Source: Flavobacteriales bacterium
GTDB taxonomy: Bacteria > Bacteroidota > Bacteroidia > Flavobacteriales_D > CAJJDF01
Direction: 5' to 3'
Length of the DNA: 20,811 nucleotides
Assembly: GCA_020630395.1 (NCBI GenBank)
Contig: JAHDBM010000049.1
Coordinates: 1-20,811, forward strand
Positions within the stretch are counted from its first letter, which is position 1. The number at the start of each line of letters is the position of its first letter. The translations under genes were made by a program, and so were the position numbers. The notes beneath the pieces were generated by a model. It saw only the letters and a program-made list of their open reading frames with translations. It was not told where the DNA came from and ran no database searches. Positions 2,249-20,191 of this stretch are shown here, one piece after another.

Positions 2249-3433
2249 ATGAAGTCTATACTAAATAGTATTTTAATATTACTTGTTTCTATCTGTACCA
2301 TTTATACGGTTGCATTTTCACAGCAATTTGTACCAGGAACATCTGTTTTAGATACAACAGGTTATGTAGAATATATTCCTGGAAATTTACCAGTTATAAT
2401 TTCGGTACCGCACGGAGGATATCTAGAACCTAGTTCAATACCACAAAGAAATTGTAGTGGTTGTACTTATATAAGAGATGCTTATACACAAGAGCTAGCC
2501 AGAAGCTTACAAGTTGATTTTTTTAACAAGACTGGTTGTTATCCTCATGTAATAATTAATCTATTACATAGAAATAGATTTGATGCTAACCGTTCAATTG
2601 CAACAGCTGCCGATAGTAATGTAACGGTAGAGCAATCCTGGTATGCTTATCATGAATATATAGATTCGGCAAAAGCAAAAATTACTAGAGACTATGGAAA
2701 AGGGTTATTTATTGATCTTCATGGTCATGGCCACACCATCCAAAGATTAGAATTAGGATATACCTTATCAAAAGCTCAACTTCAATTGTCCGATTCTGCA
2801 TTAGACTCTCTTCAATATGTAAACATGAGTAGTATAAAATCATTAACACAAAACAACTTATTGTCTTTATCTCACTCACAATTATTAAGAGGACCAAATA
2901 GTTTTGGAACGCTTAATGAAAACAAAGGAATACCAGCAGTTCCTAGTATTCTAGATCCATTTCCCGTAGGGACAGAACCCTATTTTAGTGGAGGTTACAA
3001 TACCGATCGTCATGGTTCAGTTAATGGAGGAACGATAGATGCTATTCAAATTGAATGTAACCAAGATGTCCGTTTCGATTCGTTAACAAGAGCATTATTT
3101 GCTGATAGTTTAACTGATGTAATAAATGAATTTATTAATTTACATTATATTAATTCGTATATCGGGAGTTATTGTAATTTGACAAATAACATTTGTAAAA
3201 ATAACTTCGAAGAAATACTGATATTTCCTAATCCTGCTAATCAAACAGTATATTTTAATACTAAACAAACTCACCTTGAAGTTTCCATTTACGATTTAGT
3301 AGGAAATCATATACATAAGATGAAACTAGTCAAGAATACAATGGATATTAGCTTTTTAAAAAAAGGAGCTTACTTATTTTATATATCAAAAGACAATAGG
3401 TTTATTGGGGTCAATAAAGTAATAAAACGATAG
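2249..3433 (+). CDS. Secreted T9SS-sorted protein; N-terminal domain resembles a zinc hydrolase of the carboxypeptidase-like superfamily (N-formylglutamate amidohydrolase / AstE-AspA / M14 type)
   Basis: Signal peptide MKSILNSILILLVSICTIYTVAFSQQ. Motifs ISVPHGGYLEP, IRDAYTQELAR and FIDLHGHGH. The C-terminal ~75 aa (ILIFPNPANQTVYFN…IYDLVGNHIH…GAYLFYI) match the Por/T9SS C-terminal sorting domain pattern. Confidence 0.6.
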   Translation: MKSILNSILILLVSICTIYTVAFSQQFVPGTSVLDTTGYVEYIPGNLPVIISVPHGGYLEPSSIPQRNCSGCTYIRDAYTQELARSLQVDFFNKTGCYPHVIINLLHRNRFDANRSIATAADSNVTVEQSWYAYHEYIDSAKAKITRDYGKGLFIDLHGHGHTIQRLELGYTLSKAQLQLSDSALDSLQYVNMSSIKSLTQNNLLSLSHSQLLRGPNSFGTLNENKGIPAVPSILDPFPVGTEPYFSGGYNTDRHGSVNGGTIDAIQIECNQDVRFDSLTRALFADSLTDVINEFINLHYINSYIGSYCNLTNNICKNNFEEILIFPNPANQTVYFNTKQTHLEVSIYDLVGNHIHKMKLVKNTMDISFLKKGAYLFYISKDNRFIGVNKVIKR

Positions 3434-3443
3434 GTTTAGATTA

Positions 3444-3481
3444 AAAAACACCCCTAACAAATTAGATTTATTAGGGGTTTT
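3444..3481. terminator. Terminator hairpin between convergent genes
   Basis: ACCCCTAA / TTAGGGGT 8-bp stem (3450-3457 and 3471-3478) with a 13-nt loop. A-rich on one side, TTTT on the other. It sits between the stop of the plus-strand gene (3433) and the stop of the RHS gene (3489). Confidence 0.5.
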
Positions 3482-3488
3482 CATGTGT

Positions 3489-6400
3489 TTAATAATTATT
3501 AGTCATAATGTATCCAAGTGGTGTACCGGCAGGCGCAGGCCTAGTAGGTACGATAGGAGGTAATGGTTTATCTCTAAGACCAACTTTTTCAGCAAAAGGT
3601 ATTAGAGTAGATGATTTCCAATTTTGATACCATTCTGTATGAGAAGCAGCTTCAGCAATGTCCCATCCTAATCCTAGAGCCTTGGCATATGGGTGTTTAC
3701 CTTCACTAATTAATGCAACTCCAACTTTAATTGATGTAACAAAACCGCTCTGCCTTCCTTGTCTATATTGGTTTAAATCATCAAGAACTCCAATCGCAGT
3801 GCCGGCCTTACCTAGTCCATTTGCAACCTTGTTAACTTTGTTTTGTAAAATTACGGTATGTCCTCTTGCACCATATTTACCCCAACTGGATCCATTTAAT
3901 TTATTTCTTCTCCACTTACCATCTACTAGTGATCGCCATTTTCCATCTTTTATTAATTGACCTGAGAAAAAGTTTAAGGAATGACCAGTCCATGCCATGG
4001 TTTGAGTAATATAATCCCACCTATTAAAGGCTGGTTTATGTATAATAACATTTGTAACTGTAGACATTTGGTAATACACACCATCATCTCCTCTTACTAT
4101 TTCAGGGGCATGATCTTCTTGATAAGCGCTTATAGGACAATCTGGGCAAGGAGGATCATTGTGTGATCTATGGTTTAATGCAGTAATAACAAGTCCTTTT
4201 CCTGCACCTGCAAAAAAGTTACCTCCACTTATAACACTCGTAATTCCGCCAGATGCTGCACCAGCCGCATAGGCTTCTAATGCACTTGCATTATCGGTTA
4301 AAGATCCAAATCCTGAAGAGACAACAGAAGTTAGGAATCCACTTCCAAAACTACCACCTTGCATTATTGAACCAAAGCCACCTACCATACCGTGTGCTCC
4401 AGCTCTTAGTAACTCTTTTCCTGCCGAACCAGTAGCTCCAATTGCTGATCCTATACCAGATGTAGCAGCAGAAGTTACACCACCTACAATAGCACCAGCT
4501 ATAAATCCTGTGGCAAAACTACCACCTTGCTTATGATTACTTATTCCTTGAACAATTCCACTAATTACAGCACCAATTCCTATAGCAGCTATAATACCTA
4601 AATCTCCTTGAGGATCGGCATACATAGCAGGGTTATTATTCATACTTACATAAGGAGAATAAGCCGCAACTGCATAACCCTTTGGATCTACTTGATACCA
4701 TCTTGCCATAGATGGATCATAAGTTCTATATCGGGTAAAACCTAAATTTAAATCGAAAGAAAATTCGTATTCGATTCCATTATATAAATAATTGTTTTCA
4801 TGTCCATTAGATGCATTTGTGTTATTAAGGCTTGTTCTAATGTTGAAATGCTGCATCCCATAAGGATAGTAATCGGTTGCTTGAAGTATTTCATTGTCCT
4901 CGATAGATCCATTATCGTTTAGGTCGCTATATACTGCTCGTGTATTGCCTAAATGATCTTGTATGTAGTAATCATATCTTGGCGTACTGTGTATGTTGTT
5001 AACTCTATAAAAACCACCATTAATGGTTTCATCATTATTTGTGTAAATAAAGCTGCCAATATAATCTGTAACTTCAGTTATCGATCCATTGTGAGTAACC
5101 GTTTTTTGAAGTCTACTTCCATTAGCATCAAATAACCATTGTATTTTACCAGTTTGATCTGATTTTTCTATTTCATATGGAAGGTCAAAATAATTGTACA
5201 AAATATTAATTTGTCTACTAGGATCATATGTAATATTACCATCTAAGTCATATAAATATTTCTCATTACCATTCCAGGAGTATTGATTTTTAGACTCATA
5301 ACCTGGAGAATGATGGGTATAAATAGGAGAATAGTTATATTCCCTAATGCGCTCAAGTCTATTATAATAATTGTTCTCATACATATAATATAAATCATCA
5401 ACTTTTACTCTATTATAGCCTTGAACAATATTATTGTAGCCTACACCATATCGTATTAACCTTTCCAAATTTCCTTGATCATCATAACTATAAGAACAAT
5501 CATATAAGCCCACAGATTGATTACCATTACCCTCAGAGTAAATAGCTTCAGTTAATCTACCTATGTAATCGTAGCCATAATCATAGTTTTTCCAGGATTC
5601 ATTTCTGTGTTTCCATCTAATAGCTGATAGTTTACCATCTCGGTAGGTGTTCACACCAGTTAAACTTGTATTATTTGTTTCATAAATGAATGACAAACTA
5701 AAAATATCATCAGCTGTTGGGTTTGCATTTATACCCACTAAATGATTTTTTTCGTAGGTATAATCTATTGTTTGAAGCGCTCCGTTATTATTAACTCCGT
5801 TTTGACTTTGACTAATTGTTCCATCAGCATTAAAGGTATTATGTGATAAATGTTCTGTGTGTCCATTAATGGTTTGGTAAGCATCAGTAGCTATGCCTTG
5901 AGGAGTATAAGCTGTTTCATTTTCAATTACAACTGGATTGGCGTTAGCTGTTTTTCTTTGTGTTACACGCCAACTAATTATGTTACCTGCAAAATCATAG
6001 ACATAATTATCAGTTACTTTGGAACCGCCAAGGTGATTGTCTTTTTCTACACGTAATAACCTTCCATATGTATCGTAATCATTTATAGTTACCAGTCGAT
6101 TGGAGGTTAATTGAAATCCATTAAACATGGCAGTTTCTTGTCGAACCACTTTGTTAATGCTAGTTCCAGAGTTACTGTAAAAAGTTTCATTCCAGATATT
6201 TGTTGCTAATAAATTTTCAACATTGGGTTCTCCATTTAAATCGATATCACCCGATCGAATTAATCGCCCTTTCGTGTCATATTCGAATACGTTCCATTTA
6301 TTTAAACTGTTTAATTTGCTGGTTTGTTTTGCGACTAGCTGGTTAAGACTGTTATATCTAAACTTAACTATTCCTTTATCAGGAGATTTTAACTCTATTA

Positions 6401-9400
6401 AATTACCTTGCCCATCATATTTTTTTAAGAAAACAGAATTTGTATTACTTGTAGAAACAGAGGGAGGTATTACTTTAATTATTCTAGCTTTATGATCGTA
6501 TTGTGTATAAGCATCTAGATGATCGTTAACTGTTTGATAGGTGGTTCTTGCTAATACTGTTTTTCCTTCTACGTCATTAAACGTAATTGTTTTTTTTCCT
6601 TCAGGTGTTATTACTGTTGTTTTAAATAGTTTACCCTCTGGAAAGAACCCTCCATTATCTAAGTTTTTTACATTATCTGTGGATAAATTGTGTCCGTATG
6701 AATAATAAGTTGGTTCTCCTTGTGGAGGTGTTACCTCCATTAATCTACCTAATGGAGACAATTCATATACATATTGTGTATATTTTGCTATAGCTGGATC
6801 AGGGAATAATTGAAATTGTCCATTGTTTCCACCTTCAAATTCTTGATATTGGAAAATATCTTTACCTACTTCATCATAATGTGTTATGTTAACCAAATCT
6901 AGTCCATTTACCGAAGCATTTTCATCTACCGCAACAATAACTCTTCCAATACCATCAAAGTAATTTCGAGCAGCTTTGTCTGCTACAGGGTTTTCGGGAA
7001 TTTGTGTGTAACTCACATTTGTTCTTGTATAAGGGTAATCATCATTTTTTATATCGCCCATGTGGTAGCTGTGGGTTGTAATGATGTTACCTCTAGCCTC
7101 TGTTTTGGTGATTAGTCTTCCAAATTGATCATAAACAAAATCAATTTCTTCGCCACTAATAGAGGTTATTTTAGATACTAATCGGGTATTGGGATAATAA
7201 TCGCTATAAGATGTATTACCGTTAAAAGATGTACTAATTAATTTATGATCTTCGTAGGTCATAACTTGTTCTCCCCATCCTGGTTTTTTTGTTCTTAAAA
7301 TATTTCCGTCTCCATATTGAACTAAGGTATCAGTTGGTATCCAACTCCCTGTATAATCGTCTTCTACGTTTTGTGTTCCTAAAAATTTATAGCCAACATG
7401 TGGGTATAGTTTAGGCATAAATAGACTTTGTGTGTTCAACATATGGCGGTAATCAATAATACCGTATACATCTACTAATGGATGATAAGATGCAGTATTC
7501 ATCACGCCATTTTCATCAAAAAGTTCGAATTTTGTTTTTACACCACCAGTTTGTATTTTTTCTCCATTTACTCGTTTAAACACCTCTGTTTTTAAAGGTA
7601 TGTTTTGCAAGTTTAACGCCAGTAAAACTTCATCTGCCAAGGTACTATCATCTACTAAATCAAACGCATAAGAATATTCTTCTTCTCTTCTATTACCATT
7701 ACTGTTTGTTGTTACTTTAGCTTCTGGTGCAATGTGTGGGTTAATTGTATTGTAATAATAATCGGTTCTAACATCAACACCATCTTTTATCGACTCTATG
7801 GTTTGCAATTGATAGTAACCATCTTTAATGTAATATTCACTACACGATATGAGGTTTACTTTATGGGTTCCAAAACCTCCGTTATCTCTTCTAAATGATA
7901 CAATTTCTCCAATCTTGTACAGTTTTTCGGTTGAGTGTAAATTCCAATATGAATCGTAGGGAGTATAAGTTGTTTTGGCAACTTCATTATTAAAGGCATC
8001 TACCATAATTATTTCAGATACTTGGCCCGTAAATGGATTAAAAATTGGAGGTGTAAAAGGAAACTTATGTTCATTAGGAGTAACCCAATCTTGCATTTCT
8101 TGTTTAAACTTATAAATGGTTTTTCCATTTCTAGGAAGATGAACTTCCTTTACTTCTGTATAAGCAATAGGTGTCCCGTTATATCCGCTTAACGGCATAA
8201 AACTTTGATCACTAAAATATATTCTCTGAAAATATGCATCACGTGCCCATGTAGGTAAGTTTACTCCATCATCTCTATGGTGAAGGTTCCAGCTACTTGA
8301 ATTTGGGACTTCTCTTTGAGCGTAATCAAATTTATTAATATTCATGCTAAAAATAGGTTCAAATAATCTTTCACCACTAGACTCTGTAGAATTACCAACA
8401 GTATATTCAAATTCAGTTATTATATCATTATCAGTTTCTTCAATTCCATCTTCAACTGTTATCCTTTTTATTCTAAGTCCAGGCGCAAGCTTGTTAGGGT
8501 CAGGTACGATTGATGGTGTTTTTAGTTTTAAAGAACCTGGTCCACCTTCTATAGTAACTTTAAATTTATAATTAACATTAGCAGTTAATCCTTGTAATGG
8601 AGATGTACCATCTTCTTCTTTAATTGGGAATGTAATATTACCCGAGTAAGTTTCATGATTTTGGATATTAAAAGACCGAGTAAGTGCTAAATCGTTAGTA
8701 GCAGTTTCAAAAATTTCGATTGTCATGTTTGCTCGGCCATCAATAGTTGGGTCGTTACAACCTTCTATGGTAAAATCTTCTAAGTCGTATGGAGATCCTG
8801 TATTGTTGTGATTATTATCAATTGGATCGTTTCCTCCTACAGGTGTAAGATGCCCACCATTTCCACCATCATTTATAAAATGATTAATAGCTAGATTCAC
8901 GGTAAACGTGCTATTTCTTAGTTCTTCCATTGAAGAAAATGTATAAGTAGCTTCATCTTCTAATTCATTACAACAAGCTAATTCACCATATTCGCACCCT
9001 TCAAGTAAAAAGCGAGTATAGAAATTAGATAGTTCTAAAAAAGAATATCTATGCCCTTCCCAATCATAAGAAGTTGAGCCTCCTGTAGGATATTGAACTT
9101 TTGTTAATACTCCATATTTTGCTTTTTCTTCATTTGCAGATCTATTGGCACCACCCTTATGTTTGACGATTACTTGATTTGTAACTGGGTCAACAAGTCT
9201 TTCTGTTCTTGATGGGATATTATCTGATCGGTAATTGTTTAATGATGCTCCATTGTAATATCCCATTTCATCTGTAGCTTTTGATAACCTACTAGGAAAG
9301 TATGGCTCGTTATCATTAGATGAGTCGGGAAAATGATACGTTAATTCGTAGGGAGGCATTTGTATGCTTTGATCACAAGATACCTCTTGAATACTTTTTA

Positions 9401-10679
9401 GAAATAAATTTTTGTTTTCGGCAACATCAGTTGGGTTGTTCAATAAATTAATATCATCATCATGGGTATATTCGTATGCTAAAATATATTCTTTACAAAA
9501 TGAATTATTACCACTATTAGCTGATGCACCAATGTTTTTAGTAATAATTTTATTTAGTTCTCTAGGTATATCGTATGGTGTATAAGGTATAAAGTTTGAT
9601 GCATGGTTACCCCATCTATCTATGTCTTCACGAGCATTTTCATATTCAAATTCAATAATGTCAAGGTCACTTTCAATTTTTTGTAATCGAACTCCTTTAA
9701 TAAGGTTTACATCATAATTATGTCTAGCACCATAATCTTCTATACGATAAGAAAATCTTGTGCTACTTGTATTAGCAGCAACTGATCCATTTACCCCATA
9801 AATACTGGTAGGGCTTCTTTCTTTTACCCCATTAAGATTTCTTGAATCATCAGTTATTGATTCGTCAATTTCATAATTTTTGAATCGAAAAGTATTTCTT
9901 GCAGGCGTTTTTACTAAATAAGATTCTTGTTCATAATAAAAGTTTAGATTATAGTCTAAATTATAATCTTGCATAGCAAGCAAGTGCCAACTTGTAATGA
10001 TTGTGTCTTTTATTATTCTATTTCTATTTTTAACGGTATTTCCATTTTGGTCTATAGTATATTCATATTGTTCTGTTGAGCTTGTTTCAATTGCATATCT
10101 TCCTGCAAACCTTCCAAAAAAGTAGTTGGTTCCATCAACATCAATAAGAGTAAAGCCAATTATTTTTCCATTTTCTCTAAATCTACTTATTCTTATATCA
10201 CTTCTTGGAATACAGTGGGCGTGTCCATTCTTATCAAAATAAAATTTACCAGACAACCCGTTTACATTAAAGCTGTACATATCTGGCTCAAGATCTTTGT
10301 TAATATGGGTAGCTTCATGATCTGAGTCATCATCAAGATCAAATACTAAGTTATTTTGATATCCTGTTAGGCCTTCGTCATCTGGTTTATCTTGTACTTC
10401 TCGTGATATTACTCCTCCAGCTATAAGTGACCAACCTTTTCCAACCATTGATGCAGGAGTGTTAACAATTAAGTTTCCTTGGTGGTAAGATAAACCAACA
10501 GATGTAGCTAATGAGCCTTCTTTAACAGATCCAATTGGAATACTTATGTTTGGACTTCCTGTATATTGACTAACAGGACTATTACCATATGTTCCCAAGC
10601 TAGCTGCCGAAGGAGATGCTTGAGAAAGAAATTGATTAATAGTGATTATAAAACTTAAAATTAAAAGAGTAGACTTCAT
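3489..10679 (-). CDS. RHS/YD-repeat polymorphic toxin (2396 aa): N-terminal signal peptide, C-terminal variable toxin region after the DPxGL motif
   Basis: Signal peptide MKSTLLILSFIITINQFLSQA. Dozens of YD-type repeats (YVYDFAGNII, YSYDDQGNLERL, LYDLDGNITYD…). RHS core end …RYRTYDPSMARWYQVDP…NPAMYADPQGDLG at ~nt 4598-4633. Downstream of that come a Gly/Ala/Ser-rich hydrophobic segment and a ~230-aa domain I cannot assign. Confidence 0.9.
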   Translation of the reverse strand: MKSTLLILSFIITINQFLSQASPSAASLGTYGNSPVSQYTGSPNISIPIGSVKEGSLATSVGLSYHQGNLIVNTPASMVGKGWSLIAGGVISREVQDKPDDEGLTGYQNNLVFDLDDDSDHEATHINKDLEPDMYSFNVNGLSGKFYFDKNGHAHCIPRSDIRISRFRENGKIIGFTLIDVDGTNYFFGRFAGRYAIETSSTEQYEYTIDQNGNTVKNRNRIIKDTIITSWHLLAMQDYNLDYNLNFYYEQESYLVKTPARNTFRFKNYEIDESITDDSRNLNGVKERSPTSIYGVNGSVAANTSSTRFSYRIEDYGARHNYDVNLIKGVRLQKIESDLDIIEFEYENAREDIDRWGNHASNFIPYTPYDIPRELNKIITKNIGASANSGNNSFCKEYILAYEYTHDDDINLLNNPTDVAENKNLFLKSIQEVSCDQSIQMPPYELTYHFPDSSNDNEPYFPSRLSKATDEMGYYNGASLNNYRSDNIPSRTERLVDPVTNQVIVKHKGGANRSANEEKAKYGVLTKVQYPTGGSTSYDWEGHRYSFLELSNFYTRFLLEGCEYGELACCNELEDEATYTFSSMEELRNSTFTVNLAINHFINDGGNGGHLTPVGGNDPIDNNHNNTGSPYDLEDFTIEGCNDPTIDGRANMTIEIFETATNDLALTRSFNIQNHETYSGNITFPIKEEDGTSPLQGLTANVNYKFKVTIEGGPGSLKLKTPSIVPDPNKLAPGLRIKRITVEDGIEETDNDIITEFEYTVGNSTESSGERLFEPIFSMNINKFDYAQREVPNSSSWNLHHRDDGVNLPTWARDAYFQRIYFSDQSFMPLSGYNGTPIAYTEVKEVHLPRNGKTIYKFKQEMQDWVTPNEHKFPFTPPIFNPFTGQVSEIIMVDAFNNEVAKTTYTPYDSYWNLHSTEKLYKIGEIVSFRRDNGGFGTHKVNLISCSEYYIKDGYYQLQTIESIKDGVDVRTDYYYNTINPHIAPEAKVTTNSNGNRREEEYSYAFDLVDDSTLADEVLLALNLQNIPLKTEVFKRVNGEKIQTGGVKTKFELFDENGVMNTASYHPLVDVYGIIDYRHMLNTQSLFMPKLYPHVGYKFLGTQNVEDDYTGSWIPTDTLVQYGDGNILRTKKPGWGEQVMTYEDHKLISTSFNGNTSYSDYYPNTRLVSKITSISGEEIDFVYDQFGRLITKTEARGNIITTHSYHMGDIKNDDYPYTRTNVSYTQIPENPVADKAARNYFDGIGRVIVAVDENASVNGLDLVNITHYDEVGKDIFQYQEFEGGNNGQFQLFPDPAIAKYTQYVYELSPLGRLMEVTPPQGEPTYYSYGHNLSTDNVKNLDNGGFFPEGKLFKTTVITPEGKKTITFNDVEGKTVLARTTYQTVNDHLDAYTQYDHKARIIKVIPPSVSTSNTNSVFLKKYDGQGNLIELKSPDKGIVKFRYNSLNQLVAKQTSKLNSLNKWNVFEYDTKGRLIRSGDIDLNGEPNVENLLATNIWNETFYSNSGTSINKVVRQETAMFNGFQLTSNRLVTINDYDTYGRLLRVEKDNHLGGSKVTDNYVYDFAGNIISWRVTQRKTANANPVVIENETAYTPQGIATDAYQTINGHTEHLSHNTFNADGTISQSQNGVNNNGALQTIDYTYEKNHLVGINANPTADDIFSLSFIYETNNTSLTGVNTYRDGKLSAIRWKHRNESWKNYDYGYDYIGRLTEAIYSEGNGNQSVGLYDCSYSYDDQGNLERLIRYGVGYNNIVQGYNRVKVDDLYYMYENNYYNRLERIREYNYSPIYTHHSPGYESKNQYSWNGNEKYLYDLDGNITYDPSRQINILYNYFDLPYEIEKSDQTGKIQWLFDANGSRLQKTVTHNGSITEVTDYIGSFIYTNNDETINGGFYRVNNIHSTPRYDYYIQDHLGNTRAVYSDLNDNGSIEDNEILQATDYYPYGMQHFNIRTSLNNTNASNGHENNYLYNGIEYEFSFDLNLGFTRYRTYDPSMARWYQVDPKGYAVAAYSPYVSMNNNPAMYADPQGDLGIIAAIGIGAVISGIVQGISNHKQGGSFATGFIAGAIVGGVTSAATSGIGSAIGATGSAGKELLRAGAHGMVGGFGSIMQGGSFGSGFLTSVVSSGFGSLTDNASALEAYAAGAASGGITSVISGGNFFAGAGKGLVITALNHRSHNDPPCPDCPISAYQEDHAPEIVRGDDGVYYQMSTVTNVIIHKPAFNRWDYITQTMAWTGHSLNFFSGQLIKDGKWRSLVDGKWRRNKLNGSSWGKYGARGHTVILQNKVNKVANGLGKAGTAIGVLDDLNQYRQGRQSGFVTSIKVGVALISEGKHPYAKALGLGWDIAEAASHTEWYQNWKSSTLIPFAEKVGLRDKPLPPIVPTRPAPAGTPLGYIMTNNY

Positions 10680-10703
10680 TTTTTTCTTTTTATAAAATGT
10701 TTA

Positions 10704-11864
10704 TTAGTTGTTTTTGATAAATTTTGAAGTAATAATTTGTTGATTAACATTTACTTCAATGGTGTATATTCCTCCAGAAAGTGATTCAAGGTTTAAGAAT
10801 TTTGTTCTACCTTTTATTGATGTCTCTAGCTTAGTTTTTCCTTGTGCATCTATTACTTTTATAGAAAAATCTTCCATTAATTCTTCTGAAAGCGTAACAG
10901 TAATATTATCTATAGTTGGGTTTGGGGATACAGCAATATTTATATTAGGGTAATAATTCTCGTCATAAATATCTATTGGTTCTGCATCACAATCAATATT
11001 TTTATTTCTTAGTATTTTACTCTTTGTAATTAAGTTTGCGGCTAATATTCTTCTAATTTGGCCATGAGTAAAACTATATAAACACTTATCATTAGTGTTA
11101 TCCATGTAGTTAAAGTAAAGCTCTAGTTTTCCGTCTATTGTATTAACATGTCCGTCTGCAGGGCATTCGTCATTTGGGTCATTATGTAGAGGCGTGTCAT
11201 ATACTTTATCATCTTTTCCATTTTGATACCATAAATCATATAAACCCATAGAATTTCCTAGTAAGTGGATAAGTGTAGCACCTTCATTATAGCGTTTAAA
11301 CTTTGCTACCTCTTGCATACCAAAAAAACTTCTATTAATTGTTACATGAGTGTTTTCTATTTTCATCCATGGCATTAAAGACCAACCAGCAATTGTATCA
11401 TTAAGAGGTAGTATTGTAACAATTAGGAACTCATTAGGTTTCCAAAAAGCAGTGTCGAACCTTTGTAAAATGAATTTTGAGTATTCAATGCCTAATTTGT
11501 TGTTTTTTTTGGCTAAACAAAACGTTATGCTTGGCAATCCATCAATTTGAAAAGCTTCATTAACTTTATTTAATTGATCTAGTATATTGGTATGAGTTAA
11601 TTTGTTTTTTTCAGCTCCATAAACTTGATGAAATACAACTGGAATTGTTTGATCTTTTATTGCACCTCTAAAGATGTAGTTCTCAATTTTTTGCTCAATT
11701 TGATTTTTTGTTTTTTTTATTGAATCATTTTTTAATTGTTCAGATTCCTTTTTTTGCGTTTCATAATTTCTGGGAACAATAGCACTTTGAGCATAACCTA
11801 AAGTAGATTCTAACATTAGTAGAATATAGGTTAAACAACATAATATCATTTTTTTTGATTGCAT
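10704..11864 (-). CDS. T9SS-sorted M43 (cytophagalysin/pappalysin)-like protein with degenerate zinc-binding motif (probable pseudo-peptidase)
   Basis: Signal peptide. M43-type motifs VYDTP…C…NYMDNTNDKC…FTHGQIRRI. In place of HExxHxxGxxH it has HLLGNSMGLYD, which lacks the catalytic Glu and the second and third His. C-terminal T9SS CTD (IAVSPNPTIDNITVTL…GGIYTIEV). It sits 24 nt upstream of the RHS gene on the same strand. Confidence 0.6.
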   Translation of the reverse strand: MQSKKMILCCLTYILLMLESTLGYAQSAIVPRNYETQKKESEQLKNDSIKKTKNQIEQKIENYIFRGAIKDQTIPVVFHQVYGAEKNKLTHTNILDQLNKVNEAFQIDGLPSITFCLAKKNNKLGIEYSKFILQRFDTAFWKPNEFLIVTILPLNDTIAGWSLMPWMKIENTHVTINRSFFGMQEVAKFKRYNEGATLIHLLGNSMGLYDLWYQNGKDDKVYDTPLHNDPNDECPADGHVNTIDGKLELYFNYMDNTNDKCLYSFTHGQIRRILAANLITKSKILRNKNIDCDAEPIDIYDENYYPNINIAVSPNPTIDNITVTLSEELMEDFSIKVIDAQGKTKLETSIKGRTKFLNLESLSGGIYTIEVNVNQQIITSKFIKNN

Positions 11865-12028
11865 GGTTAGGTTTTTTGATCTAATTTATTTGCAAAGGTA
11901 TAAAATTAGTTCTCACAACCTATGCTTATAACAAAAAAGTTTTGTTTTTAACAATTTGTTATTTTTAAATCTTATTTTTTTAATAAGATCCTAAATGGGA
12001 ATATTAGAATAATTTTTATAACTAAAAG

Positions 12029-12099
12029 GGTGTCTTCGGGGATCGACCCCTGTTCTCTTGCTTCACAGGTAAGCACTTTACCGAATAAGCTAAAGACAC
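12029..12099 (-). tRNA. tRNA-His(GTG)-like, atypical (6-nt T-loop, no encoded G-1)
   Basis: Minus-strand read: GTGTCTT-TA-GCTT-ATTCGGTA-AAGT-G-CTTAC-CUGUGAA-GCAAG-AGAA-CAGGG-GTCGAT-CCCCG-AAGACAC-C. Perfect 7-bp acceptor stem, U33 and A37 present, anticodon GTG, discriminator C73 (the His identity element). The T-loop is one nt short. Confidence 0.5.
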
Positions 12100-12108
12100 T
12101 ATAAAAAA

Positions 12109-12179
12109 TTGCCCCGACAGGGATCGAACCTGTAGTACAAGGCTCAAAATCTTGGGTGTTGCCGTTACACTACGGGGCA
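12109..12179 (-). tRNA. tRNA-Gln(TTG)
   Basis: Minus-strand read: TGCCCCG-TA-GTGT-AACGGCA-ACAC-C-CAAGA-UUUUGAG-CCTTG-TACT-ACAGG-TTCGATC-CCTGT-CGGGGCA-A. Perfect acceptor stem with U1-A72 (typical of Gln). D-arm and T-arm are canonical. Anticodon UUG. One A31·C39 mismatch. Confidence 0.75.
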
Positions 12180-12438
12180 TTTTAAATTCCTATCCAGATT
12201 CGAATTGGGACTGTAGAGTTTAAGTCTACTATCTCTGCCAATTGGATTAGAGGGACATTGTTGTAATCAGAGCGGGTTAAACAGCTAGCTTTTTATTAGC
12301 TTAAAAGATTTATCTGCTTATTTAGGAATTTCACAAGTTACATTGAGTAGAATTCGGGCTGAAATCTAATTTTTTAACATATGTAAAATTTATTGTGACT
12401 TTTTAGTCTTTCATTTGTAGTAGCTAAACTTATACAAT

Positions 12439-12849
12439 ATGAAATCACTTAATAAGAAACAAATTGGATGCTATGCTATGTTTATATTAATGATACTTTC
12501 CGCATCTTTTAAAATTCTACGTTATGGGCCATCTGTACATTTTTATGTTTATCCTTTACCAGATATAATGTTAAACTCTGTTGGATATATAGAGCTTATT
12601 TGTGGAATTTTATATCTCATTGGAGTTAAAAAAGTATCATTTAGAGTTTATGGAGGCATAATTGTAATACCTCTATTGATTGGAGCTGTTGGCTCTCATA
12701 TTGCGTTTGGATGGTTCAATTTGTTTGATGGAATAAGTGAACCTTTTCACTTTACTTTACCATCATTTATTATTTTATGTCTTGCCATTTGGATTTCACA
12801 TAAACCTATTGTAAAATTTGTGAAGTCAGGCTTTAAAATGGTTGAATAG
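12439..12849 (+). CDS. Small polytopic membrane protein, DoxX-like
   Basis: 136-aa ORF with 4 predicted hydrophobic helices. The …GYIELICGILYLIG… segment resembles DoxX-family proteins. Confidence 0.45.
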   Translation: MKSLNKKQIGCYAMFILMILSASFKILRYGPSVHFYVYPLPDIMLNSVGYIELICGILYLIGVKKVSFRVYGGIIVIPLLIGAVGSHIAFGWFNLFDGISEPFHFTLPSFIILCLAIWISHKPIVKFVKSGFKMVE

Positions 12850-12897
12850 AAAGGAGAACCCTTTTGGTTTGTATGGCTTTTTATTAAATAAAAAAAG

Positions 12898-12972
12898 TAC
12901 AGAAGGAGAGACTCGAACTCTCAAAAACCTGATTCTAAGACAGGCGCGTATGCCAAATTCCGTCACTTCTGC
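12898..12972 (-). tRNA. tRNA-Leu(TAG)-like with Leu-type D-arm and A73 but only a 5-nt variable loop (atypical)
   Basis: Minus-strand read: GCAGAAG-TG-ACGGAATTTGGCATACGC-G-CCTGT-CUUAGAA-TCAGG-TTTTT-GAGAG-TTCGAGT-CTCTC-CTTCTGT-A. 75 nt. The D-arm closely resembles bacterial tRNA-Leu (…CGGAATTGGTAGACGCGC). Anticodon UAG. The long variable arm expected for Leu is absent. Confidence 0.5.
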
Positions 12973-13027
12973 ATGTGTTAAGATGCTGTTCTTTATTTAC
13001 TATTACATTTGTTCAGTCCATATTAAT

Positions 13028-13050
13028 TGAATGCTTAGCATTCCGAATCC
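13028..13050. repeat. Hairpin-containing ~23-nt motif, copy 1 (TGAATGCTTAGCATTCCGAATCC)
   Basis: GAATGC-TTA-GCATTC perfect 6-bp hairpin followed by CGAATCC. 20 of 23 positions match the copy at 13731-13752. Confidence 0.4.
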
Positions 13051-13107
13051 TTATCTTCCGATAGAAAGTCGGATGCAGGATCCATTATGCTAATGGAGCC
13101 TTTTTTG

Positions 13108-13179
13108 TATGGGAAACAGGATTCGAACCTGCAACCTCCCGCGTCCAAGGCGGGTAAACAGCCTTCGTTATCTTCCCAT
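13108..13179 (-). tRNA. tRNA-Pro(TGG), copy 1
   Basis: Minus-strand read: ATGGGAA-GA-TAAC-GAAGGCT-GTTT-A-CCCGC-CUUGGAC-GCGGG-AGGTT-GCAGG-TTCGAAT-CCTGT-TTCCCAT-A. Perfect acceptor and anticodon stems, anticodon UGG, discriminator A73. Position 8 is G, which is unusual. Confidence 0.75.
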
Positions 13180-13204
13180 ATATAAATACTCACAGTATTT
13201 TTTG

Positions 13205-13276
13205 TAGAAATAGCAAGAATCGAACTCTCACCTTTGGGTTCGTAACCCAATATTCTATCCGTTAAACTATATTTCT
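13205..13276 (-). tRNA. tRNA-Arg(ACG)
   Basis: Minus-strand read: AGAAATA-TA-GTTT-AACGGATA-GAAT-A-TTGGG-UUACGAA-CCCAA-AGGT-GAGAG-TTCGATT-CTTGC-TATTTCT-A. Perfect acceptor and anticodon stems, anticodon ACG. One T-stem mismatch. Confidence 0.75.
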
Positions 13277-13364
13277 ATTTTGTCTGAGAAGCAGGATTGA
13301 CATAGTCTTTCCTGCAATTGCTCAGCCCGAACCAAATTTAAGTAAACTTGTTTTGGTTTCTTCG

Positions 13365-13436
13365 TCTGAGAAGTAGGATTCGAACCTGCGACCTCTCGCG
13401 TCCAAGGCGAGTAAACAACCTCCGTTATCTTCTCAG
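13365..13436 (-). tRNA. tRNA-Pro(TGG), copy 2 (paralog of copy 1)
   Basis: Minus-strand read: CTGAGAA-GA-TAAC-GGAGGTT-GTTT-A-CTCGC-CUUGGAC-GCGAG-AGGTC-GCAGG-TTCGAAT-CCTAC-TTCTCAG-A. Same architecture as copy 1 with a different acceptor stem (G72 here). Anticodon UGG, A73. Confidence 0.75.
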
Positions 13437-13526
13437 TTGAGTAGTGCCGATCCAGTAGATAGGACAATTAAATTAAGAGACAGTTAATCTAAATCAATAG
13501 GATATTATTGCGGCACTTGTAAAAAG

Positions 13527-13597
13527 TAGGAATAGCAAGAATCGAACATGCAGCTTTGGAGCTCTCCCCCAATGTTTTGCCATTAAACTATATTCCC
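13527..13597 (-). pseudogene. tRNA-like paralog of tRNA-Arg(ACG) with non-canonical anticodon loop GGAGAGC (no U33)
   Basis: Minus-strand read: GGGAATA-TA-GTTT-AATGGCA-AAAC-A-TTGGG-GGAGAGC-TCCAA-AGCT-GCATG-TTCGATT-CTTGC-TATTCCT-A. It aligns position by position with the Arg tRNA at 13205-13276. The anticodon loop lacks U33; a nominal anticodon would be AGA. Confidence 0.45.
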
Positions 13598-13730
13598 ATG
13601 TAATATGTTCCAACATTTTTTCTGTCAGTTCGAGTGATTTTTGCGAACAGCTAAAATTATATCGAGAACAAAAAAACAAGTGGAAGCAGTAGGATTAGTT
13701 CACTAATGTGTATATTTTAATTGTGTTCAC

Positions 13731-13752
13731 TGAATGCTTCGCATTTCGAACC
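13731..13752. repeat. Hairpin-containing motif, copy 2 (TGAATGCTTCGCATTTCGAACC)
   Basis: Near-identical to 13028-13050. Both copies sit in spacers of the tRNA array. Confidence 0.4.
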
Positions 13753-13874
13753 TACAGGTTCCGAAGAAACCAGATTTTACTTCATTAACGTGTTTATATT
13801 TAAAGGTATTCAGTGAATTCGCCAGCTCATTTCAGTCTGGCTAGCCAACCAATTGCTCAATACTTCCATAAAAG

Positions 13875-13947
13875 AGACAAGAGTGAGATTCGAACTTACA
13901 CAAAACAGGTTTGCAGTCTGTTGCCTTAGCCGTTCAGCCATCTTGTC
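13875..13947 (-). tRNA. tRNA-Cys(GCA)
   Basis: Minus-strand read: GACAAGA-TG-GCTG-AACGGCTA-AGGC-A-ACAGA-CUGCAAA-CCTGT-TTTGT-GTAAG-TTCGAAT-CTCAC-TCTTGTC-U. Perfect acceptor stem. U33 and A37 present. Anticodon GCA, discriminator U73 (the Cys identity element). Confidence 0.75.
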
Positions 13948-13953
13948 TTTATG

Positions 13954-14040
13954 CGGAAAGAGTGGGAGTCGAACCCACACGAGTCATTATCTCCGAACAG
14001 TTTTCAAAACTGTGGCCACCACCAATTGGCTTGCCTTTCC
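13954..14040 (-). tRNA. tRNA-Ser(TGA), type II with long variable arm
   Basis: Minus-strand read: GGAAAGG-CAA-GCC-AATTGGTGGT-GGC-C-ACAGT-UUUGAAA-ACTGT-(TCGGAGATAATGACTCGT)-GTGGG-TTCGACT-CCCAC-TCTTTCC-G. Ser-type D-arm with GG. Anticodon UGA, G73. One extra nt between acceptor and D-stem (or an 8-bp acceptor). Confidence 0.7.
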
Positions 14041-14078
14041 GTTTTTTATTTTTATCAATAAGTCAAAGTTTGAGACAC

Positions 14079-14110
14079 AAAAAAAGCGTCTCGGTAAGGA
14101 GACGCTTTAT
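14079..14110 (-). terminator. Intrinsic terminator (strong in minus orientation) upstream of the tRNA array
   Basis: AGCGTCTC-ggtaag-GAGACGCT 8-bp stem (14085-14106). In minus-strand sense it is followed by TTTTTTT. It would block read-through into the tRNA array from higher coordinates. Confidence 0.5.
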
Positions 14111-14519
14111 AATTATTGATAGATATCAATAGATCATAAAAGGCAATTCTCCTGGTTATATATTTTCTGCGAAGAGGGATAACATAATCGTAATGCTTCT
14201 AGCTGAAGACTCGGGAGTATATACCCAAGTGTTTCTATAATTTGTTTGTTATTTAATTTAAAATGTTTCATGTGTATAATGCTATACATATTTATTGTTT
14301 TCGCTCTGCAAATATCAAAATCATTTTTTTAAAAAACAAATAAAAAATCAATTTATTTTATTGATAATCAAATATTTAAGCTAAAATATAGACGGTTTTC
14401 TCCCTGTCCACCTATTGGTAGATATTACATGTTTTTACAATCGACTGTCTCTCAATTATTTCTTGTTTCAAATGCTATTTTTTAGTTTCTTATTTCATCA
14501 GTTGTTTTTAGTAAAAAAA

Positions 14520-14560
14520 AATCAAAAAAAAAGCGTCCAATATATTGGACGCTTCGCTTT
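14520..14560. terminator. Perfect 22-nt palindrome hairpin flanked by A-run and T-rich tract (terminator-like in both directions)
   Basis: AGCGTCCAATA|TATTGGACGCT (14532-14553). Preceded by AAAAAAAAATCAAAAAAAAA, followed by TCGCTTTTAGTTT. Confidence 0.45.
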
Positions 14561-14888
14561 TAGTTTAAAAATGGATATAAAATCAGTTCATATTTTCGCA
14601 TAAAGTTACATATCGTCCTTGTTTATCAACATAATTCGATTGATAAGCACTCGGTCGAAGCTCAAGGCAAAAAAGAATATGTAAACTGTTTCTAGTCATT
14701 ATTATACAAAGGTATATAAAATAATTTACTGAATGATGATTTCTTTTATCTCACGAATATCTATTTAAACATGACGAATATCTATTCAATTTAAACAGAA
14801 ATAGACTACCTCTTTACTAGTGCTATGTTCTACAGTAGTTTTAGACATAAGTTTTTTAAAATTAAAGTTTAATATAAACCATTATAAT

Positions 14889-15347
14889 ATGAAGTATTTA
14901 TTAATTGCTGTAGTTGGTCTTGTCAATATAGGTTACAGCCAAAATAGTGTAAATAGTTCCGGAGGAGATTTATCGGGATCGGGAAGTATTAGCTATAGTG
15001 TAGGCCAAATAACAACTAAAACAATAGCTAATTCAGGAGGAACATTATTCGAAGGAGTTCAAAGAGCCGAAGATCAATACACAACTGGAATTATGACTCC
15101 ATCTGTTGTTAAAATTGAAATAGTAGCCTATCCTATTCCGACAAGTGGAAATGTAACACTAAAATCGAGCGGTAATACAACCATGTCTTATAGCTTATAT
15201 AATAATCAAGGAGCATTACTATTATCAGGTGTACTTAATAATGGGTCTACAATTATAGAAACAGAACACTTAAGTAATGGGATATACAATTTAAAAGTAA
15301 CAGGAAAACATAATCTAAATAAGAATATCAAAATAATTAAAAACTAA
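14889..15347 (+). CDS. Small secreted protein with T9SS C-terminal sorting domain
   Basis: I start at the internal Met (MKYLLIAVVGLVNIGYSQ signal peptide); the ORF track begins at 14820. C-terminal region VKIEIVAYPIPTSGNVTL…GIYNLKV matches the T9SS CTD pattern. Confidence 0.6.
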   Translation: MKYLLIAVVGLVNIGYSQNSVNSSGGDLSGSGSISYSVGQITTKTIANSGGTLFEGVQRAEDQYTTGIMTPSVVKIEIVAYPIPTSGNVTLKSSGNTTMSYSLYNNQGALLLSGVLNNGSTIIETEHLSNGIYNLKVTGKHNLNKNIKIIKN

Positions 15348-15349
15348 GC

Positions 15350-16300
15350 GTGATGAAAAAATTAATAACAATATTAAGCGGAATAATGCTCATGGTAAAC
15401 AGCTTTTCCCAAGCACCAGAGAAATTTAGCTACCAAGCTGTCGTACGTGATGCAACTGATAATTTAGTAGTGAATAGTACGACTCCTATTAAAATAAGTT
15501 TATTAAAATCTACTATTACTGGGACAGTAGTTTATGAGGAAACACACACACCTACTACAAATGCAAATGGTTTATTAAGTATTGAGATAGGTGGAGGAAC
15601 CGTTTTAAGTGGTATTTTTGAAAACATTGATTGGGGCGGAGATAAATATTTTGTTAAAACAGAAATAGATGTAGATAACAATGCAAGTTATGATGTAACT
15701 GGAACAAGTCAACTATTAAGTGTCCCTTATGCTTTGCATGCAAAAACAGCAGATAGTTTAGCAGGATTATCTAGTGCTAACTTAGCTGATCTAATAGCGT
15801 TAGTAACGCCACCTCAAATAGGAGATTTTAGACATGGAGGAATTGTATTTTGGATAGATCCATCAGATCCATGGAGTGGTTTGGTTTGTGCTGTGGATGA
15901 CCAAACTGCTGGTACTACAGTAAGATGGTCTAATAACACTTCTGTTACTGGGGCTTTTGATACCATTATTGGAAGTGGACAATCTAATACAACAATGATT
16001 GTTGCCTCTCAAGGTTTAGGAGTATATGCAGCTAAAATGTGTGATGATTTAACGTTAAATGGATTTTCAGATTGGTTTCTTCCTTCAAAACACGAGTTAA
16101 ATGAAATGTACATTAATAAAACAACTGTTGAAAATGCATCTATTGCAAATGGAGGTACTGGGTTTGGTCTTCATTACTGGAGTTCTTCAGAGATAAATGG
16201 AAATGCAAATCTAAGTGTTATGCAATCTTTTTCTTTTGGGGCTCAATATAATGCTGCTAAGTTGAATTCAGCCAATGTTAGAGCTGTAAGAGCTTTTTAA
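15350..16300 (+). CDS. Secreted protein with C-terminal DUF1566 (Lcl C-terminal domain-like) module
   Basis: Signal peptide MMKKLITILSGIMLMVNSFSQA. Begins PEKFSYQAVVRD. C-terminal …LNGFSDWFLPSKHELNEMYINK…HYWSSSE resembles DUF1566. 3-nt gap to the upstream gene suggests an operon. Confidence 0.6.
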   Translation: MMKKLITILSGIMLMVNSFSQAPEKFSYQAVVRDATDNLVVNSTTPIKISLLKSTITGTVVYEETHTPTTNANGLLSIEIGGGTVLSGIFENIDWGGDKYFVKTEIDVDNNASYDVTGTSQLLSVPYALHAKTADSLAGLSSANLADLIALVTPPQIGDFRHGGIVFWIDPSDPWSGLVCAVDDQTAGTTVRWSNNTSVTGAFDTIIGSGQSNTTMIVASQGLGVYAAKMCDDLTLNGFSDWFLPSKHELNEMYINKTTVENASIANGGTGFGLHYWSSSEINGNANLSVMQSFSFGAQYNAAKLNSANVRAVRAF

Positions 16301-16311
16301 TCAATTTTGTT

Positions 16312-16326
16312 TATCCCTTAGGGATA
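16312..16326. repeat. TATCCCTTAGGGATA palindromic motif (copy A of CCCTT(G)AGGGATAT)
   Basis: Palindrome with 7-nt arms (TATCCCT / AGGGATA) around a central T; the centre does not self-pair. It lies just beyond the 3' terminator of the RtcB-PrfH cassette. Confidence 0.35.
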
Positions 16327-16390
16327 TCTTTTTCTCTGAGTCGACTATTTGGTAAAATAATCTTGGAGTGATGTTGTTTAAGAGAGAAAA

Positions 16391-16437
16391 GCAGAAGGAA
16401 CTATTTATTGTTTCTTCTGCTTTTTTTGTTTCTGTTT
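16391..16437. terminator. Terminator hairpin, usable in both directions, between convergent transcription units
   Basis: GCAGAAG-(17 nt)-CTTCTGC followed by TTTTTTT on plus, and by a T-rich tract in minus sense. It overlaps the last codons (KQ-rich tail) of the minus-strand TPR ORF. Confidence 0.5.
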
Positions 16438-16896
16438 TACTCGTTTGTTTACTTCATTTAAGTAATTCATATAATCACTATTATACGTTTCAGTTTTAGC
16501 CAACTTAATAGTTTTTATGGCCTTTTTATACTGATGTTTATATTCATATAGCAGAGCTTTTTTTGCATAGATTACTCCTTTATCAATTCCTTTAATCGTT
16601 AATGTGTAATCAATTAACTTAAACGCTTCTTTATATTTTTCTAAAGATATTAGAGAAGAGATATAGTAAGGGTAAATTTGTAAGCAATACATGTCGGCTG
16701 CTAATGCATCCTCATAATAATCAATAGCTGTTATATAGTCCTTAAGTTGTTCGGCAAATACACGTCCTTTTAATAAAAGAGCATGTGCTTGATCATCTCC
16801 ATACGATAAAGCATAATCCAATGCTTCCATTGTTTGTGGCAAATCGTAGGGGTAATGATCTATTGCCTCTAATAAATATTTTGTTGCAAGCGTCAT
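16405..16896 (-). CDS. TPR-like repeat protein with Lys/Gln-rich C-terminal tail; last gene of the RtcB-PrfH cassette
   Basis: 163 aa. Helical repeat pattern with Tyr/Ala/Leu periodicity (…ALLLKGRVFAEQLKDYITAIDYYEDALAAD…). Its start overlaps the prfH stop (ATGA). Confidence 0.5.
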   Translation of the reverse strand: MTLATKYLLEAIDHYPYDLPQTMEALDYALSYGDDQAHALLLKGRVFAEQLKDYITAIDYYEDALAADMYCLQIYPYYISSLISLEKYKEAFKLIDYTLTIKGIDKGVIYAKKALLYEYKHQYKKAIKTIKLAKTETYNSDYMNYLNEVNKRVKQKQKKQKKQ

Positions 16897-17555: not shown

Positions 17556-18066
17556 TTATTTCTTTGTTTAGTGCTAATAATGCAATAGCTGCTTGAACTG
17601 CCCAGCACTTATCACTAGAATGTATATTCGAATAAAAACTTAGTAGTTTATCTGGTCGCACTATTTGCCAATCATCAATTAATATAAATGGTAGATTAGC
17701 TGATTCAAAAAAATCAATTGTTATTCTTGTTTCTCTATCATCATCCAGACTAACTATTTTTTCATATCGTCTAAAATTTTCATTGCTAGGTCTATTGTAA
17801 TATCGCGTCCATACTTTTTTGAAGTTTTCTGCAAGTAAAATTGTCATTACTTGTGGAACATTTCTTGGATTCACAAACAAATCAATATCCTTGTGGTCAT
17901 GTGCATGTTTATATTCTGTATGATTTTTAGGAGACATAAAGTGCCAAGCCCAACCGCCAGAAATAATTACCAATGGTTTTATTTTTTCTAAAATTTCTAA
18001 GCCTTGATTAATTCTATAATCCGGCCATTTTTCTCCATATCTTTTTTTGTTATGTGGTGCTCCCAT
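17521..18066 (-). CDS. Nucleotidyltransferase-fold protein (minimal NTase-like), unknown specificity
   Basis: 181 aa. VIISGGWAWHFMS…(13 aa)…HKDIDLFV fits the hG[GS]…[DE]h[DE]h pattern of the Pol-beta-like NTase superfamily. It lies between rtcB and prfH on the same strand. Confidence 0.45.
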   Translation of the reverse strand: MGAPHNKKRYGEKWPDYRINQGLEILEKIKPLVIISGGWAWHFMSPKNHTEYKHAHDHKDIDLFVNPRNVPQVMTILLAENFKKVWTRYYNRPSNENFRRYEKIVSLDDDRETRITIDFFESANLPFILIDDWQIVRPDKLLSFYSNIHSSDKCWAVQAAIALLALNKEIIGNKLLSEKPN

Positions 18067-20175: not shown

Positions 20176-20191
20176 TTCTTAACCCATTAAA

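Follow-up and report, generated by a model that had tools for sequence, protein, structure and literature searches.

Encapsulation and autoproteolysis of a C-terminal fragment are established for the rearrangement hotspot (RHS) class of toxins (PMC10684867), whereas the exit of RHS cargo from the cage and its crossing of target membranes are still poorly understood. In CdiA, a small helical pre-toxin domain, DUF637 (PT637), lies just before the boundary motifs (PMC3482391, PMC4725963). In Tde1, a type VI secretion (T6SS) DNase, a glycine-zipper region is needed for translocation into prey, that is, for delivery rather than killing (PMC10240207). Integral-membrane immunity proteins accompany membrane-acting toxins, for example CdiA-CT(EC93)/CdiI, and a pattern of small immunity proteins with multiple transmembrane (TM) segments has been noted for Imm-CdiI and Imm17 (PMC3482391). 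Here we describe an RHS gene on a stretch of 20,811 nucleotides (nt) from a Flavobacteriales bacterium (contig JAHDBM010000049.1, the window hereafter). The 3' end of this gene encodes a two-part polymorphic-toxin cargo, a constant Gly-rich module followed by a variable toxin tip.

The encoded protein matched the RHS_repeat model (Pfam PF05593, 8e-12) and the YD_repeat_2x model (NCBIfam TIGR01643, 1.2e-5), and its core matched TIGR03696 with 35.3 bits against a cut-off of 32.5, over profile positions 1-75 of 76 (coordinates in Table 1). The core ends in a motif of the DPxG(L/D) type, DPQGDLG, and DPxGD is kept in every relative in the module alignments. Based on established knowledge of RHS proteins, cleavage would be expected at DPQGDLG, where the motif itself is what we read. 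The fragment past this motif comprises amino acids (aa) 2029-2396 (368 aa; nt 3492-4595, with the stop codon extending to 3489). An earlier note, made from the letters of this DNA, had picked out the same fragment as 3489-4597, with a trivial error of 2 nt at one end.

Employing BLASTP, we found 36% identity over 505 aa between the window protein and an RHS protein of a Saprospiraceae metagenome-assembled genome (MAG; locus L012, JANQSS010000112.1, 117-7698), and the match ends exactly at NH(R/K)xH, the boundary between module and tip. Clearly, by its repeats, its core and a variable tip with a defined homology break, the locus belongs to the RHS polymorphic toxins; an adjacent immunity gene is absent. 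The GC content at third codon positions (GC3) is 0.11 in the module and 0.21 in the tip, and 0.18-0.24 in neighbouring genes. The raised GC at the 3' end of the gene is due to Gly and Ala codons, and with a native GC3 it does not point to recent horizontal transfer. The window contains no second RHS-core or module cassette.

The earlier note had described the segment after DPQGDLG as Gly/Ala/Ser-rich and hydrophobic, and both composition and hydropathy agreed: residues 2029-2168 consist of 24% Gly, 16% Ala, 13% Ser and 11% Ile, the Kyte-Doolittle mean is 2.03 over the first 19 residues of the module, and the density of GxxxG is 5.7 per 100 aa compared to 0.30 in the remaining protein. The segment is, in addition, a conserved unit. 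Searching with RHS core and Gly-rich stretch together retrieved 31 homologous proteins, most of them orphan cassettes of 300-400 aa that begin in the RHS core (or the module) and carry the entire Gly-rich stretch. Across Bacteroidota RHS toxins and orphan cassettes the identity of the module is 35-55%. A scan of one genome per species added 28 module loci, in Bacteroidota and a few Proteobacteria (Luteimonas); the nearest are from Saprospiraceae MAGs, and others are from Prevotella, Hoylesella, Hallella, Muribaculaceae and Porphyromonadaceae.

Conserved blocks of the module are GNNFFxGAGKAA, ELxRAGAHGxxGG, QGGSFGSGFLSG and GGIGSxxxGGNFxxGxGQG. At its end, (L/F)NHxxH is near-invariant in alignments A3 and A4, and in A4 N162 is invariant and H163 conserved in at least 90%. 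Beyond NHxxH, the sequences of module carriers are mutually unrelated. The AlphaFold2 model from A4, an alignment of 21 sequences, predicted six helices (pLDDT 62.6) joined by three GG[SN]F turns. Foldseek matched this model to nothing in the PDB at E<0.2, and a PDB profile search with A4 gave nothing significant.

In the searched libraries no Pfam or NCBIfam model scored above threshold on the module, and its placement after the RHS cleavage site with an NHxxH boundary is likewise unannotated. The sole recurrent Pfam match was DUF637 (PF04830), found in 5 of 21 members at E<=10 (best 9.5e-7), and one relative, P0031, passed the gathering threshold with 27.6 bits versus 26.6. These scores suggest that the module is distantly related to DUF637, of which it is not a member by the Pfam threshold. 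Its sequence conservation marks the Gly-rich segment as a true domain, probably a folded and functional one, and not as linker or low-complexity filler. The earlier note missed that these ~140 aa are a common pre-toxin domain with an NHxxH junction, and that the tip behind it has distant relatives.

The tips behind the module are of different kinds. P0012 carries a colicin-E3 'Cytotoxic' domain (PF09000, 6e-16), and L013 and L020 encode Tae4 peptidoglycan amidases (4.5e-11 and 4.6e-12); DUF8209 (by precomputed annotation) and many unannotated tips also occur. The genes that follow vary tip by tip, with 0 to 3 predicted TM segments, which indicates that immunity follows the tip and not the module. 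Two immunity families were found, group A and group B, and each tracks one tip family.

For the tip of the window, the earlier note could name no toxin family, nor could we. The last 233 aa gave no Pfam or NCBIfam match at E<=1 and no PDB sequence match, and neither the tip profile (A2, see below) nor the whole protein retrieved anything significant from the PDB; the profile and PDB searches thus related the tip to no known module, a check which the same note had proposed. A word-indexed search of 5.8 billion proteins with the tip yielded no match, exhaustive phmmer against 1.84 billion cluster representatives retrieved only the protein itself, and comparison with PHROGs and tblastn of a plasmid collection gave no match.

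Pairwise BLASTP against module carriers did reveal relatives: P0009 (26% identity over 194 aa, E=4e-9), P0033 (E=7e-9) and P0021 (E=2e-6). A profile of the family, built on alignment A2 of the window tip with these three, recovered only P0009, P0021 and P0033 from the 5.8 billion proteins. The tip of the L012 Saprospiraceae RHS protein matched A2 with an hhalign probability of 92.7% (E=4e-7). No more relatives were found in the scan of genome contigs, and the metagenome scan gave P0033-like contigs only; the genome that the window comes from is not part of either collection. By these sequence matches the tip family is real and very rare, with five lineages: the window, P0009, P0021, P0033 and L012.

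Family motifs of the tip are DG(K/R)(W/Y)..., PYxxAxGxGW(D/E) and WY. In the five-way alignment past the junction only two G, one W and one acidic position are invariant, and so few invariant residues hardly resemble the active site of an enzyme. Just past the junction there is a CxxC of the CPDCP type in the window, P0009, P0021 and P0033; it is absent from L012. The NHxxH and CxxC motifs may together make up a His2-Cys2 metal site where module and tip join. The unrelated tips of P0018 and P0019 also have CxxC after NHxxH, and the spacing among carriers is 0-9 residues.

The three orphan cassettes of the tip family, P0009, P0021 and P0033, are each followed at 3-13 nt by a small co-oriented gene encoding 123-149 aa. 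The partner proteins are mutually homologous (E=8e-8) and contain two or three strongly hydrophobic segments of ~19 residues in a common layout; tandem paralogues are present in P0033 loci. A hidden Markov model (HMM) of group-A immunity proteins scored 63-190 bits on these loci, which served as positive controls, and nothing elsewhere. Both the tip and the 3-TM partner family are unannotated. From the 3-TM partners and the precedent of membrane immunity cited above, a membrane target can be deduced for the tip family, which by analogy probably is a membrane-acting antibacterial toxin and not an RNase.

At the locus in the window, no co-oriented ORF (open reading frame) of plausible size comes after the RHS stop codon; a terminator is followed by a convergent gene, the product of which matched Por_Secre_tail (1.4e-9), FGase (3e-7) and TIGR04183. 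The earlier note was right on this arrangement: it had reported no co-oriented immunity ORF, a terminator immediately after the stop, and a convergent next gene whose product is secreted by the type IX secretion system (T9SS). This arrangement leaves no space for an immunity gene. The group-A HMM found no match in a six-frame translation of the window. Among module-bearing genes with complete tips in genomic loci (n=21; ORFs of at least 60 aa counted), 19 have a co-oriented ORF that starts -26 to +37 nt from the stop codon, and a like layout of toxin plus small gene is seen among the called genes of L006 and L007. An immunity gene is truly absent at this locus, which is unusual compared to 19 of 21 relatives.

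The informative exception among the 21 is L012, the only other full-length RHS with this tip family, which has no adjacent small immunity ORF. Its next gene encodes a 469-aa T9SS-sorted protein, and the window RHS gene likewise lies between two T9SS-cargo genes. Two full-length cases are a lead, not a rule. The immunity gene either is elsewhere in the genome or is dispensable as the producer is not a target.

Three ORFs of the window were rejected as immunity genes. The 136-aa 4-TM ORF at 12439-12849 has an hhalign probability of 0.3% to the immunity family; it is conserved, forms a 90% cluster with a protein of 'uncultured Aquimarina sp.', and in a related genome stands beside a cyclic-nucleotide (cNMP)-binding regulator with no RHS gene near. 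A 32-aa ORF (3386-3484, minus strand), which runs across the terminator hairpin and the last part of the convergent gene, is spurious. So is a 62-aa ORF with a TTG start (2709-2897, minus strand), which is antisense within the well-supported FGase gene.

We propose that the RHS protein releases a fragment composed of a constant delivery module and a rare, membrane-acting tip, with no local cognate immunity, and give this reading as a whole a probability of about 0.55. The cage would be exported via its Sec leader, and the core would cut at DPQGD|LG, freeing the 368-aa fragment inside the shell. Upon contact with prey, module and tip would exit from the cage; the module would then insert into or associate with the target membrane and position the tip at its site of action, in function much like the pre-toxin and entry regions of CdiA and the N-terminal glycine zipper of Tde1. 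A role in delivery or membrane insertion is what we consider the best reading of the hydrophobic Gly-rich module, which as the constant 'handle' of a large Bacteroidota family would also provide homology for the swapping of cassettes. The tip of 223 aa would be the actual toxin. Most likely its target is the cytoplasmic membrane of other bacteria and its action is not enzymatic, because its orphan relatives pair with 3-TM proteins and no residue of a catalytic type is invariant. The architecture is solid; the mechanism of both module and tip is what we infer from it.

Several results weigh against this proposal. Clear TM-like hydropathy is limited to the first helix of the module and is modest in helices 2-6, so that a TM check of the Gly-rich segment, as the earlier note had suggested, was positive for the first helix and not for the later ones. 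The 8 GxxxG motifs in the segment are at the chance level (7.8 +/- 2.1 in composition-preserving shuffles). The term 'glycine-zipper-like' in that note therefore holds for the composition of the module and not for any periodicity beyond chance. The score of the window module with DUF637 is 10-11 bits (E=0.33-0.59), far under the 26.6-bit cut-off. As to the tip, that of the window has no TM-like segment by hydropathy, and its single-sequence AlphaFold2 model, with a pLDDT of 31, was unusable and was left out of the fold search. The membrane target is deduced by association from no more than three partner genes, and since both full-length RHS members (window and L012) lack a 3-TM gene, the association may not apply to them. 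Finally, the module precedes periplasm-acting Tae4 and cytoplasm-acting E3 rRNase alike, which indicates a role broader than entry through the inner membrane. Cage exit, membrane tethering and a recombination handle may be alternative roles of the module, indistinguishable on present evidence.

The last of these roles is central to a different view of the module, as a flexible, small-residue packing element or 'plug' that keeps the cargo soluble or unfolded in the shell and serves mainly as a recombination handle. Its position right after the cleavage site and before tips for different compartments would fit, as would the modest hydropathy of helices 2-6; the orphan cassettes begin within core or module, as substrates of homologous recombination would, and those of L006 adjoin recombinase genes. 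We consider this rather unlikely, since GGSFGSGF, RAGAHG, GGNF and NHxxH are kept from Flavobacteriia-like organisms to Prevotella and Luteimonas, as expected for a folded functional domain and not for a linker. To our knowledge, most proteobacterial RHS toxins are without such a segment, which also counts against this view. That the Gly-rich module itself is the toxin, a glycine-zipper pore former like Tse5-CT or EsxX with the tip as an accessory in targeting or regulation, has precedents in the pore-forming C-terminal fragment of the RHS protein Tse5 (PMC9637101, PMC10684867), in the depolarising glycine-zipper toxin EsxX (PMC12744356) and in the glycine-zipper region of Tde1, which alone is bacteriostatic when over-expressed (PMC10240207). 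The content of 24% Gly, the hydrophobic first helix and the predicted six-helix bundle, which resembles Gly-rich membrane proteins, are consistent with it. For a toxic constant part, however, a common immunity gene would be expected, and none was seen: the downstream genes vary and often encode 0 TM segments, and immunity groups A and B follow tip families, not the module. The module also precedes bona fide toxins (E3 rRNase, Tae4), and unlike a toxin of the Tse5-CT type, its Gly-rich region is neither variable nor matched by immunity, nor is its GxxxG periodicity above composition. A toxic module is thus unlikely. Slightly less probable still is a decaying or inactivated tip whose immunity gene was lost as no longer needed. 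The window tip is the most divergent member of its family (21-31% identity): ~20 aa are inserted behind CPDCP and a Pro-rich stretch close to the C-terminus, AE stands in place of the relatives' GR after GW(D/E), and the locus has no immunity gene. The 7.2-kb ORF is nevertheless intact with native codon usage, the PYxxAxGxGW(D/E), WY and RD motifs are retained, and the equal lack of an adjacent immunity gene in L012 hints at a pattern rather than decay.

Other explanations concern the missing immunity gene. As a long shot, the module might be a self-inserting Tim17/22-like half-channel that the RHS cage leaves in the prey membrane as a tip-independent conduit; tips on full-length, Sec-exported RHS proteins of T9SS-bearing Bacteroidota (window and L012) would then need no immunity gene since delivery separates self from prey, for example via T9SS-anchored partners encoded alongside. 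The earlier note had considered an effector directed at eukaryotes, similar to Tc toxins, for which no immunity gene is needed. The Sec leader in place of a T6SS-type N-terminus, the absence of an adjacent immunity gene, a source organism that probably is Aquimarina-like, and a weak profile match (E=0.06), confined to the RHS-core/first-helix region, to mosquito SGS RHS proteins (SGS4) would agree with such a target. We regard it as very improbable: neither a TcB-like N-terminal part nor a TcA/TcB-like partner was detected in the 20.8-kb window, the company of the module is antibacterial (Tae4 and colicin E3 tips) and includes polymorphic arrays with immunity-like genes, and 3 of the 4 tip relatives, the orphan cassettes, have adjacent immunity-like genes. 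The same note had pointed to the nearby RtcB-PrfH cassette as a non-canonical means of self-protection if the tip were an RNase. RtcB and a PrfH-like protein are indeed encoded in the window, and a module-bearing cassette, P0012, has a domain of the colicin-E3 type. The window tip itself is unlike a ribotoxin, matching neither the Cytotoxic domain nor any nuclease family at E<=1 (6e-16 for the control P0012), its orphan-cassette relatives pair with 3-TM proteins, and the RtcB-PrfH cassette lies ~6.2 kb from the RHS gene, with a T9SS-cargo gene, the tRNA array and genes of opposite orientation in between. The chance that this explanation holds is close to nil.

Among the other module carriers, we observed an abundant tip family in gut Bacteroidales (L014, L015, L017, L019, L024 and L034; Muribaculaceae, Porphyromonadaceae, Bacteroidales and Prevotella) with the motif GNSTIGSNGxFY...GFYGNQYV and a C-terminal Gly-zipper double-helix tail. 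Behind these tips are tandem arrays of up to five paralogous 3-TM proteins of ~170-185 aa, and neither the tips nor the 3-TM proteins were above threshold in any Pfam model. Kinship of the window tip family with these Bacteroidales tips ('group B'), indicated by a weak BLAST chain (6e-4, 8e-3), was rejected at an hhalign probability of 0.24%. P0018, an ENA metagenome protein, has a serum-amyloid-A-like domain (PF00277, 8.6e-30) as the tip of an RHS cassette behind the module. In L006 (ENA ERZ28496113 ctg14553, 3683-20697), a helix-turn-helix (HTH) regulator, a DnaG-like primase and two tyrosine recombinases precede each orphan cassette with its immunity gene; at least two full copies of this unit are present, and a third begins at the edge of the locus. 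L006 may be a recombinase-driven toxin-cassette system.

Around the RHS gene, the upstream T9SS-cargo gene ends 24 nt before the RHS start and is possibly co-transcribed with it. The minus strand at 12028-14040 carries an array of some ten tRNA genes, for His, Gln, Leu (two), Pro (two), Arg-ACG, Cys, Ser-TGA and an odd Ser-AGA, which is broken by the 136-aa 4-TM ORF. With two weak tRNA-like Rfam matches at 1546-1681, beyond the RHS block, the block is flanked by tRNA or tRNA-like sequences. A gene at 15350-16300 (plus strand) encodes a 316-aa protein with an N-terminal match to the Bdellovibrio 'mosaic adhesive trimer' and a C-terminal Lcl (Legionella collagen-like adhesin) domain, and adjoins another T9SS-cargo gene. 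The co-oriented run at 16405-20175 (minus strand) consists of a 227-aa ORF, RtcB, a 181-aa ORF, the PrfH-like RF-1 protein and a tetratricopeptide repeat (TPR) protein; these genes make up an RtcB-PrfH RNA-repair cassette, enlarged by members that are uncharacterised, beside the tRNA array.

Table 1. Positions of the RHS gene, its parts and nearby features in the window, and of partner genes at three loci of tip relatives
Feature	Position	Strand or orientation	Basis or remark
RHS/YD-repeat polymorphic toxin gene	3489..10679	-	single ORF, 2,396 aa
Putative Sec-type signal peptide, aa 1-21, MKSTLLILSFIITINQFLSQA	10617..10679	-	read off the translation
RHS repeat-associated core (autoprotease/plug region), aa 1937-2025	4605..4871	-	TIGR03696 (Rhs_assc_core)
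DPQGDLG motif, aa 2022-2028, expected C-terminal autoproteolysis site	4596..4616	-	motif located in sequence
Conserved Gly/Ala/Ser-rich pre-toxin module, aa 2029-2173, ~145 aa	4161..4595	-	homologues, alignments A3/A4, AlphaFold2
NHRSH junction motif, aa 2169-2173, module/tip boundary	4161..4175	-	alignments, BLASTP
Variable toxin tip, aa 2174-2396, 223 aa	3492..4160	-	member of very rare family
CPDCP (CxxC), aa 2178-2182, just past the junction	4134..4148	-	sequence read
Hairpin terminator common to two convergent genes	3450..3478	-	13-bp stem, then GTTTTTT
Convergent gene, FGase-like with T9SS C-terminal sorting domain, at the expected place of an immunity gene	2249..3433	+	Pfam/NCBIfam
Upstream co-oriented T9SS-cargo gene	10704..11864	-	Por_Secre_tail 1.2e-10, TIGR04183 4.9e-12
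RtcB	18116-19507	-	within co-oriented run
PrfH-like RF-1 protein	16893-17555	-	within co-oriented run
Partner gene of P0021 cassette, 149 aa	L001 1500-1949	co-oriented	
Partner gene of P0009 cassette, 126 aa	L002 1085-1465	co-oriented	
Partner gene of P0033 cassette, 123 aa	L003 6411-6782	co-oriented	tandem paralogue

As a constant helical part before many different tips, the module is a concrete candidate for the missing delivery step of RHS toxins, and Bacteroidota carry it widely, among them gut Prevotella and Muribaculaceae. With the tip come a toxin family of great rarity and, as its counterpart, a family of 3-TM immunity-like proteins, and the two full-length RHS genes without an immunity gene depart from the toxin-immunity rule in a modest but genuine way. 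Should the ideas proposed here be wrong, what is left is a further polymorphic RHS toxin whose tip lacks annotation.

Like membrane-acting toxins with membrane immunity (CdiA-CT EC93/CdiI, pore-forming colicins, Tse5/Tsi5), the tip family has orphan relatives paired with small multi-TM proteins; it differs from them in having no sequence match (PDB searches), in a window tip without an obvious hydrophobic hairpin, and in the lack of an immunity gene in the window. Tde1 also has a Gly-rich helical segment N-terminal to the toxin, which is proposed to aid delivery by permeabilising the target membrane (PMC10240207). No sequence similarity to it was detected, and the region of Tde1 is ~50 aa long and binds an adaptor, whereas the module here is ~145 aa long and is carried on an RHS cage. 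With the RHS toxins Tse5, RhsA and Rhs1 the protein shares the RHS repeats, the Rhs core with DPxG, a variable C-terminal toxin and the occurrence of orphan cassettes in relatives. In contrast to these, a helical module of ~145 aa separates its cleavage motif from its tip and brings a second boundary motif, NHxxH; its N-terminus is a Sec leader and not PAAR or prePAAR, and an adjacent immunity gene is lacking. The pre-toxin region of CdiA (DUF637/PT637, with a VENN-type boundary) is similarly a helical constant domain placed right before a short boundary motif and a polymorphic toxin, and the bipartite CdiA C-terminal region (CT) likewise divides the work between a part for delivery, which is constant, and a part for killing, which varies (PMC4725963, PMC3482391, PMC9424206). 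Unlike in CdiA, the module scores far under the DUF637 threshold, follows an RHS cleavage site and is presented by an RHS shell, not by a filament of the type V secretion system (T5SS); and whereas the entry domains of CdiA are receptor-specific, this module serves periplasmic and cytoplasmic tips alike.

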